51,964 nucleotides of DNA from a virus (Duplodnaviria; Heunggongvirae; Uroviricota; Caudoviricetes), in the IMG/VR virus record IMGVR_UViG_642791630_000016; one strand, 5' to 3'. Each line of letters begins with the position of its first letter. Position 1 is the first letter of the stretch. A program made the position numbers. Positions 15,001-21,000 of this stretch are shown here, one piece after another.

Positions 15001-18000
15001 CGAAAGCGCCCCCATCTCCGCGGACTCTTCCTCCGGCATCACGTCGTACACGACGCCGTTAATCTCCGCCTGTTTGCCCATCACCCGAACGGTCGCCACG
15101 TCCATCCGGCAACACATTCGCGTAAACAGATCAGACATTGATTTTTACCGCCACAGTGGCGCTGTTTGCAGGGGCATTTTCCCAGGCTACCCCCGCTGCC
15201 ACCGCACCGTCTGCAGCCAGCTGCACAACCCCGTCCTTCAGATAAACCACCGCGCCGGACTGAATGTCGTCAGCAGACTGTTTGGGCAGCAGGAACACGC
15301 CTTCGGCAAAACCGTCACCGGCCTCACCGGCAGGAATATCGGTAATGGCCACGGCCACCATACTGCCGACCACCACCGCAGCACCGCTCAGGATGGTCTG
15401 ATCTCCGGCATTCACCAGTTCAATGGTGGTACCGTCCTGTACAAAATTTTTCGCCATAATGCTGTTTCTCCGGACAGCCCCTGTGGGGCTGTTTTTCAGG
15501 CATAAAAAAAGCCCTTTCGGGCAGTGATTGTGATAACGCGGTTATCAGGCCACCGACGAACGCACCAGCCCGCGCCAGTCAAGTGGTGCCACTCCGGCAT
15601 CAATACGGATTTTTGTGGCAATGCCGTCAGTGGTGAAACCTTCCTGCTGATCAATGTATGGCGTGTCCACACCATCCAGCCAGGCCACTTCAATGGTGTC
15701 AGTGCCCTGTGCCGCCGCCAGATACCAGGTTTTCGGGTCTGCCGCATCAAGACGCGCTTCTGCAATCACCTCAGCAAAGTTCTGGATAGGGTTAATGACA
15801 CCGGCGTTTGCATCCGCCCCTTTCACACTGGCCGATTTGATGGTCTGGTTCGCCACCGTCTCCAGTGCCACCGGTACCAGCATAAAGGCCGGACGGATAT
15901 TCAGGGCACGATCGCCTTCTTTCTGCAGGCGCATCATCTGACGGGCCGCATCCAGTCCGGAAACGGAGATCCCCCCGGTGGCAATATTTTTGTGATCGGC
16001 ATGGAACAGCGCCTTACCGTCGGACAGTTTCGGGTTATCCGTCAGCACCTTGTAGACCAGGTCACCAATCGTTGCCTTCGCCGCACGCCCCATCTTCATC
16101 GGCACGTCCACCAGCATATTCAGATCATCATTGATAATGGCCTGGCGGGTGATGGAGAAAATCTCCCCGTAAGTGGCCAGTGCAATGGTCTCCTTGCGAT
16201 CTGAGGTGGTGATGTATTTATACTCCGCCCCCTCACGAACCTGGCGCAGAGAACCAAAACCGCCCATCCCCACGCGATACGCTGTTTTGAAGTCTGACAG
16301 GCGTCCCTTACGGGTCCACTTCTGGAAGGTTTCTTCTGATTCCTCCCAGCCCTGGATCAGCCCCTTGTTCGACACATCCAGCAGAATATTGCCAAAATCA
16401 GAGGTGCTGTGCGTCAGCGCCAGCCCGACCATCTGCATGGGGTTATAACTGGCCACCCCAATACCGCGCTCCGTCAGTGACATGCGAGCCCATTCACGCA
16501 GGGTCATCCCGTTATAGGCGTTATCCTTCTCGACATTTTCAAATCCGGCACGGGCCAGCATCGCCTGGCGGATCCCGTCCCCCACAAAATTGCCGTTTCC
16601 GGCATAAATATGGGCCGGTGTATTTTTGTTGGTCGGCGAGGACTCCTTGCCCATTTCATTCAGCAGACGTTCACGGGCCATTTCCAGCGAACAGTCAGGA
16701 TCAGCCACGCACTGTGCCTGAAGCGTCTGATAGCGACCGCCGAACATGGCAAACAGATCGTTAATGCCTGACATGCGGGCTTTCTGCTCAGCCATAACGC
16801 GGGCGCGAATGGTCGCCTCATCAGACACTGCCGGTACCGGTGATGGTTCTGTTACCGCCGGTGCAGGGATTGTCACTGTGGTATCACGCGGGGCACTGTT
16901 GCGTGGCGGAGTAATCATGTTTCGGATGGATTCCGGCATCTTTTTAAATTCCTCTGTACGTTTTGACTGAATACATGCCATTGCCTCAACAGCGGGTGTC
17001 ACCTGGTCAGCAAATCCGTGTGCCAGACATTCGGCACCGGACATCCAGGTTTCATCCGCCAGCATGGCGGCAATTTCATCGGTGGTTTTTCCGGTTTTCT
17101 GCGCATAGGCTGGCAACAGTACCGATTCGACTTTATCCAGCAAATCGGCATAACTGCGCATATCCTCAGCATCCCCGCCACTGAATCCCCATGGCTTATG
17201 GATCATCATGAAGGCATTTTCCGGCATAATGACCGTATCACCGGCCATCGCAATCACAGATGCCATCGAGGCGGCAACGCCATCCACATACACGGTAATG
17301 GTCGCCCCCTGATTTTTCAGGGCATTAAAAATGGCGATGCCTTCAAAGACATCGCCACCCGGTGAATTGATATGGAGATTAATGTGGGTGATATCACCCA
17401 GTGCATTCAGTTCGCTGACAAACTGCTTCGCGGTAACTCCCCAGAAACCAATCTCGTCATAAATATAAATATCCGCGTCACCCGGCCCCCCAGCTTGCAT
17501 CCTGAACCAGGATTTATTCTTCATGCTGGCTTTCGGTGTCGCGCTGATACTGTCGTTCAGTTCCGGCACTGTTGCCTCCTTTGTCGTTGACGGGGTCAGT
17601 ATCAAAGACCAGCCCCAGTCTGCTGTTTTCATCAATTTCAGCCTTGCGGCGACGTTTGACCTCATCCGGATTGCGCCCACCGGCACGCACCCAGTCAGAT
17701 TCTGTCGCTGCACCACCCCGGATCTGAATTCTCCAGGCTTCAGCTTCCTTAACCGGGTCGATCCACGGCATCACCGGACCGGAATACGTCGCGTTATATA
17801 GCGTTTTCATCTCCACATCCGCCGGAATTTTCAGCAGACCTGCCGCAACCACCATATTCAGCCATGTCCGGTACACCGGGCGGGTTACCGCGCCAATAAA
17901 ACAGTCCTGCACGATCAGTAACCATCCGTGGACTCGACCAGCTCCTGCCGCTGGGCGCTGTAGTGCCGTTATAGTTACGCGCCGCACTGGAAAACTCAGA

Positions 18001-21000
18001 CGACTGCCTGCTGCACTGCACGCAACTGGCCGTTGCGGAAAGTTTCAAGGTTGGGATTGGGACGGTCAGATTTGACCATGCCGATATCCTCGCCCTTGCG
18101 CAAATCGTCATAAATAATACCCGGGGTGATATGGACTTCCCGCTCGGTCTCTTTGCTCCCCGGATCTTCATAGTCCTGTCCGTCACCTTTACGGATATAC
18201 AGTCCCAGCGCGCAGCATACGCGCCGCTGTCAGTCCGCATCTCATACTCTTAAGGGCACTGATCCGCATCAGCACCCCCGATAACATGGATGAGCCTCGC
18301 GTCTGATGCAGACGACGAGTGAACTTCAGGTGGATCATTTTTCCGGCAGCGATTTCTTTCGTATCACTCTGCCGGCCGCTGACCGGATAATTTTTATAAA
18401 CCAGATATTTTTTCGGTCTTCCCCACTCATCAAGAAAAACCCCCTGATTCAGTCCGGCGGATTCATCAGTGCGCATGGGAACAAAATCCGGCTCCATCGC
18501 CTCAAGCCAGAATGGCACTCCCGCCGTCCGTTCCAGACCGTTTCCCGCACCACTGACCATCTGCGCAAACACTTCACCATCCCGCAGCCAGGTCCGCAGC
18601 AGTAAACGTTCAAGCACAGGACGGGTATACTGCCCTGTCACATCCGGACTCACGGACCATTCAGCCCACAAACGGCGGATATCCGCAGCCAGCTCAGCCG
18701 CCATTTCCCCGTTTTTTCGTAATGGCTGAGGCTCCACAATAATTCCCCTGGCACCAATCACCCGCTCTTCCAGCTTGTCAAACACACCAATCACCAGGTC
18801 ATGATTGATATCCAGAAAACGGGCCTGCTCCCGCAGGGAAACCGCACCGTATTTACTGAGCTGATCAGCAGAGCGATTTTCCCGCCGGGCTTTATGTGTC
18901 CGGGTCGGTTTCACCGCCTCATAGGCCATGATTAACGCCCTTGAACGCAGTCTGGCTGCTTTCCACCCGGGGGAAAACACGCCGATCACATCATCAATAA
19001 TTGCCATTAAAACCTCGCCAGTTTAAATCCCGGTTTTCCCCGCCTGCGGCTCACCATCGCGGCAAGCCTGCGTTCCCACTCCTGACGTCCGGCGCGGATC
19101 TGAGAAAGGCTTTCCAGCGTCAGTTGCTGCCCGTTGAAGATGACAGACTTTCCCTCCAGTACGGCCATTTCCGCTTCACGGTACCGCTGTATCATTTCTC
19201 TGGCTTCTTCTGTGCTCACAACCAGCCTCCTGATGTTATCCATGGATTATCTTCCGCACGCTCCGTCCGCAGTTTTTTCTTCCGGCGACGGCGTTTTTCT
19301 GCCCCGGCCGTCAGTTCCGGGGATACCGTTTCACCAGAACGCTCCTGCGGGAAGACGAGCCACGTTTCCCGCTGTGCCCAGTCCGGTGCGGAGGGCCAGC
19401 GGATCTTTTCGTAACCATGCAGAACGGCAAGCGCATCCGCATAAACCAGCAGGTCAAACGCTTCGTTAGCGCCCCTGCCCGGTTTTCGCCATTTTCCGTC
19501 ACTGCCGCGCTCTTCATAGGTCAGCTCATCGTAAAACCACCGCCCCAGCCAGTCGGGAAAGTGGATATAGTTCGGCCCTGGTGTGTCACGCCACAGGGCA
19601 TTATTTACACGATCCTTAAACGCATCCGTCTGAACCAGCCACAGCGCGACATCGCCACTGGCTCTGGCACGGCGGGCACTTCTGCCGGTATTATCCGGGA
19701 AGGTTCGGTTAATCAGCCTGTCACGGCGAAGTCCATCCCCCTTGAACAGAAACACCCTGTTGCCCAGTCCGTCACTCCGGCAACGACGCCAGAAACGATA
19801 GGCGTTATCTGTCACCCCGGCTTCCCCTCCCGTATCCACCGCCATGGCCATCAGACGCATGCGCACATCCGGATCAGAAGCCAGCGGCCATGTTTTATGG
19901 AACACATCCGTCAGCAACAAATCCCAGTCCTCCGGATATGCCGCCGGATCAACCGGCAGACTTTCACCGTTGGGACTGCAGCGCAGTGAATGCCGGATGT
20001 TGTAGCGATCAACAATCCAGCGTTCCCCCTGCTCTCCGTATCCGGTGATCTGCACAACAAAACGGCGATTTTTACCGCCCTGTACGTCAACCGTTGCCTC
20101 AATAAAACGCACACCATCCGGCACAGATCGCCGGGGAAACGGCTCGGCACGCTGTTCAAGCAGTTCACTTTTACGCTGTTCCGTGGCTGAACGGGGCAGA
20201 TAGGGTCGTCCGATATCGGTGTTCACCACCGCTTTCAGGGTCTCTTCACTGCCGGTTCGCTCATACTCTTCTTCTGCCGCCAGCAGTTTAAAAATCAGTT
20301 GTTCCCAGGTCTGAAACGCCGCAGCTGGCCCCTCCATCCAAGAAGAAGTAAATAAAAGGTAACTAAATGATTATAAGGTACTATTGAGTTATGCCCCCTA
20401 CAACATAGTCCCAGATTTAGTACCTGCTTAAGCGATAAAAAAGCAAAAAAGGAAGCAATATTAATTATTGCCGCTATGCATGATCACAATGACAAATCAG
20501 AGGCGGAATTCCGCTCTCGGAACTCACATATGAGAAACGATATTTCTTCCACCGATACCCTTTATTTGGGTATCGCAAGTAAGCCCCAAAATCTGGGTGT
20601 TGCTCTTACTACCCAAACTACGGGTAGTTTCCGTAATTTCATGATCGAGTTGCAGATCTGCAACTCCCCCACCAGCCAACGCAATTTTGCGTTATCGTGA
20701 ATATCAACAAGTTACCTCCGCAGCCGTTCCGGCGTCTTCCACTGGTAAGTATTTTTCGCGCTCTCCCTCCGTTGTTGAGAACGGCGACGGTATGCCAGCA
20801 ACTCAAGGACTCTGGTTCGTATATTGCGCATATCCACATCATTAAGCTGGATACCATCACGGCGCATCACCTCCACCACTACACGCACATAATTATCTGC
20901 GGTCATGCTGTCCGGCTGCGTGGCCTGTTCGTCAACCTGCTGGCTGATTCCGGCGACGCGGCGGATTAATCCCAGTATTTCGGCTTCTGTCATTGTGCCC

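Follow-up and report, generated by a model that had tools for sequence, protein, structure and literature searches.

The apparent breakage of the portal gene in the analysed window, by which we mean the whole stretch of viral DNA under study (51,964 nucleotides; IMG/VR record IMGVR_UViG_642791630_000016), is ordinary; it is almost certainly a base-calling error. Alignment to intact copies shows that the deposited gene lacks nine single bases within a short patch. As judged from the sequence, we put at about 0.88 the probability that a draft assembly of low quality at this spot, where it probably rests on a single read, has produced the breakage artificially.

The lambda-family (gpB-like) portal gene lies on the minus strand at 17514–19007, with an ATG at 19007 and a TAA at 17514–17516, in agreement with the location given in the initial annotation. 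It is 1494 nt long in the window and 1503 nt long in intact copies. Translation of the region recovers all the peptides quoted in that annotation, each in its stated frame: frame 0 gives TRGSSMLSGV and, further on, the C-terminus, frame 1 gives DYEDPGSKETE...QLRAV, and frame 2 gives SSAARNYNGT. The frame breaks are present in the deposited sequence, but the proposed "three compensating 1-nt shifts" are not what alignment of the nucleotide sequence to intact genes yields, which is nine 1-nt deletions. The frame accordingly changes nine times over 334 bp (18250 to 17917), with frame 0 occupied briefly after the third and sixth deletions and regained for good after the ninth. Short portal segments that had been overlooked are EYE, DAE, LTAAR, IAA, AAGSRLSF and YSAQRQELVESTDGY.

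Three open reading frames on the minus strand result from this arrangement. The first (272 aa, 18189–19007) encodes portal residues 1–252 followed by 20 out-of-frame residues. The second (148 aa, frame 2, 17794–18240) contains portal sequence only in SSAARNYNGT, the remainder being out-of-frame junk; its product forms a singleton cluster from one contig and has no match in Pfam. The third (157 aa, 17514–17987) had been taken as portal over its whole length, which holds for the last 134 aa (from LIVQDCF..., about 17918 downwards), the true portal C-terminus, but not for the first 23 aa, which are out-of-frame read-through.

The lesions were mapped by comparison with three independent intact copies, those of VT1-Sakai (AP000400), CP030767 and CP040572. 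Across window positions 16650–20341, a colinear block of 3.7 kb, no insertions were found, and nothing beyond nine deletions and two substitutions; all differences from the references are confined to 339 bp. The affected patch (17912–18250, minus strand) comprises the nine deletions and one private substitution. The deletions fall at about 18250, 18242, 18235, 18218, 18212, 18015, 17995, 17964 and 17919, in reference codons 253, 256, 259, 265, 267, 333, 340, 351 and 366, respectively. In gene sense they are GG to G (four times), CC to C (twice), AA to A, TT to T and TTTTT to TTTT, so that each leaves a homopolymer run one base shorter, a doublet in eight cases and a T5 in the ninth. For nine random sites in the 3.7-kb block to fall within 340 bp has a probability of ~5e-8, and for all nine to lie in runs of at least two identical bases, ~1e-3. 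The private substitution at 17912 (L369V), which occurs in one of 47 copies, is 5–7 nt from a deletion, and the other one, at 18156 (I286S), reflects natural variation that is common, G being present in 19 of 50 copies.

As deposited, the gene has no single uninterrupted reading frame, a failure that we attribute to sequence error. Restoring the nine bases, which are common to all relatives, yields a complete, single-frame portal of 500 aa that is identical to WP_000974564.1 except for I286S and L369V. The initial annotation had named this outcome, an intact portal in one frame after correction, as one of those that would count against its reading. The repaired protein aligns with the Phage_portal_2 profile (Pfam PF05136, the family of the lambda gpB portal) over its full length, at profile positions 3–354 of 354 (E 1.6e-80), with a score of 271.4 bits against a curated cutoff of 32.9; the unrepaired 272-aa fragment covers positions 3–224 only. 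Similarity of the VT1-Sakai copy to lambda B was annotated by its depositors. Portals of solved structure are only distantly related in sequence to the repaired protein, with a single PDB match (8vhx, E 5e-07) in the C-terminal part.

The closest known counterparts are the portal of the Stx1 prophage VT1-Sakai/Sp15 (H0023, BAB19579.1) and WP_000974564.1 of E. coli O157:H7 prophages. The window DNA is identical throughout the gene, apart from the nine bases missing between 17917 and 18250 and the two substitutions. The window prophage and VT1-Sakai/Sp15 have in common the insertion site, yehV, and the gene order DUF1441, TerL, small ORF, portal, and a fusion of ClpP protease and major capsid protein. 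The window prophage differs from VT1-Sakai/Sp15 in having neither the stx1 region nor an IS629 within the capsid gene, and in the 10.5-kb island that interrupts its TerL. The head module runs on the minus strand from a TerL fragment (19216–20337) through the small ORF (19007–19243) and the portal (17514–19007) to the ClpP/capsid fusion (15545–17569). The same order, with the portal between TerL and the protease/capsid gene, is found in VT1-Sakai, CP030767 and ECP17-46, an independent complete genome that reproduces the overall architecture of the window colinearly. Once the island is excised in silico, TerL is restored without a single mismatch over 707 aa; the head and packaging genes next to the portal are therefore without decay. 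A spread of mutations across the module, with substitutions accompanying indels, was not found, the neighbours being identical to functional copies. EC4115 (NC_011353) was rejected as a portal reference: in its structural module it carries another allele (96.9%), without the island, and only its right-hand regulatory and replication half matches the window (99.8%). A literature search on the terminase-integrated island found nothing relevant.

The deletions are private to one assembly. A search of about 15 billion proteins places the 272-aa and 148-aa frameshift products on a single contig, which is the source of the window itself, the draft scaffold DS571135.1 (5,357,950 bp; GCA_000155005.1). 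The capsid–protease fusion, the TerL fragment, IS629 orfA, the island integrase and the island capsid are each found in identical form on at least 1000 contigs. All 5,426 complete E. coli genomes are free of the deletions; the best match to the portal segment in that set is 99.4%, equivalent to the nine gaps and two mismatches, and 359 complete-genome records match at 99% or better. A 31-mer across three of the deletions has no exact match in IMG/VR, JGI metagenomes or GTDB species genomes, and an intact 34-mer has 46 exact matches in IMG/VR. In about 50 comparison copies (46 IMG/VR loci plus the reference loci), a 391-bp segment containing the patch shows one gap in one copy and none in the others. 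Every other genome examined that has the same island-bearing prophage has an intact portal. In these collections, the lesion was not found in related isolates or independent assemblies.

Similar lesions are present elsewhere in the window. A 1-nt deletion of the type CC to C at about 2927 (2925–2929, minus strand) shifts the reading frame near the 3' end of lom (ORF 2788–3465), and the resulting product of 225 aa is found on one contig only, the same scaffold DS571135.1. Another, GG to G at about 46316 (46314–46318, plus strand), disrupts orfB in the copy of IS629/IS1203 located at 45706–47015; it is absent from the best complete-genome matches, which span 3002 nt against a query of 3001 nt, and from both IS629 copies of VT1-Sakai. 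All 11 isolated 1-nt deletions of this type in the window are run contractions, ten of them in doublets. Because the same kind of run-contraction deletion recurs in lom and IS629 orfB, these two lesions point to an error type that is assembly-wide. Gap clusters at 5183–5198, 23776–23876 and 27165–27249 were considered as further error patches and rejected; they are divergent alleles, since they mix insertions, deletions and many substitutions and were seen against one reference only. Runs of N or visible contig joins that would mark a weak spot are absent from the window, which counts against an artefact.

The initial annotation had left the choice between real decay of the gene and clustered indel errors. 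The evidence favours errors, as the changes are private, are all deletions, are all run contractions and can be repaired. The number, positions and contexts of the deletions, their restriction to one assembly and the recovery of a full portal are direct observations; for their cause, we infer a base-calling or consensus error rather than mutation. The portal gene of this Sp15/VT1-Sakai-like prophage, inserted at yehV in E. coli O157:H7, would then be a normal, intact member of the lambda family. Probably only one read, or one of low quality, spanned the patch of ~340 bp in DS571135.1, and pairs of identical bases in it were called time and again as one base, with the presumed loss of nine bases; because nine is a multiple of three, the frame is regained at the end of the patch. 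Run-contraction (undercall) errors in drafts are known to generate false pseudogenes, and the window lesions resemble them: all are deletions within runs, lie close together, are confined to one draft assembly and, once reversed, leave a perfect ORF. A point of difference is the density of the cluster, with five deletions in 38 nt at one end.

A real, strain-private pseudogenisation, in which an already defective prophage truly lost nine portal bases in this isolate, is improbable. The island interrupts the terminase gene, which could relax selection on the portal and may make it dispensable in situ. The deposited sequence does contain the deletions, and their strain-private status alone does not separate a recent mutation from an error. 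All lesions are, moreover, -1 events at base runs, as expected of real -1 frameshift mutations, and slippage and Pol IV produce errors of this kind. Slippage, however, climbs steeply with run length, yet eight of the nine deletions are in doublets and none of the 15 triplets or two quadruplets in the patch is contracted. Within 334 bp there are nine independent indels plus a private substitution, against zero changes in the other ~3.4 kb, a TerL free of mismatches and a capsid fusion that is identical on at least 1000 other contigs. Gradual loss would spread over genes and consist mostly of substitutions, as in the remaining private differences of the window, which are substitution-rich mosaic patches; this is what real variation looks like here. 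The intact portals of the other island-bearing prophages also argue against decay, as does the occurrence of the same lesion type in two unrelated genes of the assembly.

A possible route to real loss might be a single burst of error-prone synthesis, with -1 frameshifts at short runs, for example in a DinB/Pol IV-like repair patch. It is very unlikely, in our view, that the nine deletions are real and that -1 frameshifts arose together at one spot in a prophage gene of a single O157:H7 isolate; such a burst could have come, for instance, from about 340 nt of error-prone repair synthesis in which short runs were contracted. We know of no polymerase that makes about 3% frameshifts over 300 nt.

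Consensus damage could also stem from a chimeric or collapsed assembly rather than from a single bad read, because O157 genomes carry several near-identical lambdoid prophage copies; up to five places per complete O157 genome match the portal segment, and the source is a draft scaffold. The chance of this is slight in the extreme, as collapsed paralogues should give mixed substitutions at differing sites instead of run contractions alone, the rest of the patch agrees fully with a single allele, and the architecture of the window is colinear in ECP17-46. Such a mis-assembly would leave the verdict unchanged, since it would still be an artefact. Programmed recoding, that is, ribosomal frameshifting that makes a functional portal from the broken frames, has only the net shift of zero in its favour, and the alignment in effect disposes of it: the ribosome would have to shift nine times, with stop codons in between, signals of slippery sites or structure are absent, and all relatives encode the protein in a single frame.

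With the deletions read as sequencing or consensus error, the portal case is a matter of data quality. The portal is not to be scored as a pseudogene, nor the prophage called head-defective on the evidence of the portal frame. On this reading, DS571135.1 carries local run-contraction errors that produce false frameshifts in the portal, lom and the IS629 transposase. If, against the odds, the deletions were true, they would be an uncommon case of frameshift mutations arising in a cluster.

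The lambda-family portal gene of the window (17514–19007, minus strand) lies in a head-morphogenesis module with the order DUF1441 gene, gene for the terminase large subunit (TerL), small ORF, portal gene and ClpP-protease/major-capsid fusion. As deposited, the portal region consists of three ORFs of 272, 148 and 157 aa in three frames, and all portal peptides quoted in the initial annotation were recovered, each in the frame assigned to it. The frame breakage is present in the file, but the earlier count of three compensating shifts is too low. Alignment at the DNA level to the intact copies of VT1-Sakai (AP000400), E. 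coli 2017C-4109 (CP030767) and O157:H7 ECP17-46 (CP040572) shows that the gene, with 1494 nt against 1503 nt in these references, carries nine separate 1-nt deletions, at window positions ~18250, 18242, 18235, 18218, 18212, 18015, 17995, 17964 and 17919 (reference codons 253, 256, 259, 265, 267, 333, 340, 351 and 366), and therefore changes frame nine times. The third and sixth deletions bring the sequence back to frame 0 transiently, the ninth permanently; of the 157-aa ORF, previously taken as the portal C-terminus, this assignment holds for the final 134 aa and fails for the remainder. Two substitutions, at 18156 and 17912, fall in the same patch.

Restoring the nine bases yields an intact portal in a single open frame of 500 codons. 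The repaired product equals WP_000974564.1, an intact O157:H7 prophage portal, except for I286S and L369V, and matches Pfam PF05136 over its full length (271 bits, profile positions 3–354 of 354), whereas the match of the unrepaired 272-aa fragment ends at profile position 224. The gene is the familiar lambda-type portal of O157 prophages and holds no novelty. I286S is a natural polymorphism, since the underlying G occurs in 19 of ~50 independent copies; the L369V base is private to the window and lies 5–7 nt from a deletion, and is therefore probably part of the same bad patch.

Judged from the sequence, the frame breaks very probably (roughly 0.88) stem from erroneous base calls or an erroneous consensus, in a stretch where the draft assembly is of low quality and probably rests on a single read. 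All nine lesions are deletions, and in every case a homopolymer run loses one base: four GG>G, two CC>C and one each of AA>A, TT>T and T5>T4. The probability of nine of nine falling inside runs is ~1e-3. The runs of the 361-nt patch comprise 51 doublets, 15 triplets, 2 quadruplets and 1 quintuplet, among which eight doublets and the quintuplet were struck. Polymerase slippage prefers long runs; a process in which any run may be called one base short fits the pattern better. In the 3.7-kb block that is colinear with the references (window 16650–20341), no further difference of any kind was found besides the patch. Nine sites placed at random in this block would cluster within 340 bp with p ~5e-8. 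Deletion density climbs toward 18250, with five in 38 nt, which would fit a read worsening near its end.

Of all contigs represented in a collection of ~15 billion proteins, a single one encodes the 272-aa and 148-aa products: DS571135.1 (5,357,950 bp), the NCBI scaffold of GCA_000155005.1 from which the window itself derives. The neighbouring capsid fusion, a TerL fragment, IS629 orfA, and the integrase and capsid fusion of an island inserted in the TerL gene are each identical on at least 1000 contigs. A match to the portal segment is held by 2,060 of 5,426 complete E. coli genomes, with 359 records at least 99% identical, and none exceeds 99.4%, the value that corresponds to nine gaps plus two mismatches. 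Searched as an exact string, a 31-mer across three of the deletions is absent from IMG/VR, JGI metagenomes and GTDB species genomes; an intact 34-mer, used as positive control, gives 46 matches in IMG/VR. The 391-bp patch is free of gaps in all but one of ~50 comparison copies (46 IMG/VR loci plus the reference loci). The sole gapped copy (L017, IMGVR_UViG_2713896799_000022) has one 1-nt deletion in a GGGG run, at a portal position equivalent to L002 4148.

A true strain-private mutation of the portal is improbable. Relaxed selection on this gene is conceivable, given that the TerL gene is split by the 10,508-bp island, but once the island is removed in silico, TerL reads through 707 aa without a mismatch to WP_001077625.1, and at least 1000 other copies share the exact sequence of the capsid fusion adjoining the portal. 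Moreover, the independent complete genome ECP17-46 carries this prophage, island included, with an intact portal, and is colinear with window 1418–51964. The decay would also be limited to 334 bp of one gene and consist almost entirely of indels, unlike the real variation of the window, whose remaining private differences take the form of mosaic patches rich in substitutions. Short patches of this kind lie in the tail fibre/lom (2464–2898), J (5099–5333) and tape-measure (10605–10672) regions; they differ from both reference prophages and look like ordinary recombinational allele exchange. Programmed recoding of the portal is excluded.

Probable sequence errors of the same type appear elsewhere in the window. 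The lom outer-membrane protein gene (2788–3465, minus strand) carries a CC>C deletion at ~2927, with a frameshift near its 3' end, that is probably of the same kind; its 225-aa product is confined to DS571135.1. The IS629/IS1203 copy (45706–47015), located in replication gene P at an insertion site common to EC4115 and TW14359, has its orfB transposase frame broken by a GG>G deletion at ~46316, where both strains have the extra base, and this is likely another error. Isolated single-base deletions of this kind number eleven in the window; every one contracts a run, and they are spread over three unrelated genes, a pattern that fits an error mode of the assembly.

The prophage is Sp15/VT1-Sakai-like, is located at yehV and lacks the stx1 region. 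The 1895-bp stx1AB segment of VT1-Sakai is replaced by 856 bp (37677–38532) with three tRNA genes (Arg-tct, Arg-tcg and Met/Ile-cat; 38128–38379), so the yehV prophage is stx-negative, with a Q-proximal module differing from VT1-Sakai. The satellite-like island (20342–30849) separates the TerL flanks (19216–20337 and 30840–31847, minus strand) and is bounded by a 12-bp imperfect direct repeat, CCCTCCATCCAA at 20330–20341 and CCCTACATCCAA at 30838–30849. It encodes a tyrosine integrase (29440–30678), a BRO-N anti-repressor (28582–29163), a primase (24799–26553), an SSB (23792–24202) and its own ClpP-protease/major-capsid fusion (21251–23140). The arrangement is real and widespread: at least 1000 contigs carry the 373-aa TerL fragment, and ECP17-46 is one of the complete O157 genomes that contain the island. 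A limited literature search found no description of a terminase-integrated island. Separate study may be worthwhile for an element with a capsid gene of its own that targets the terminase gene of its helper.
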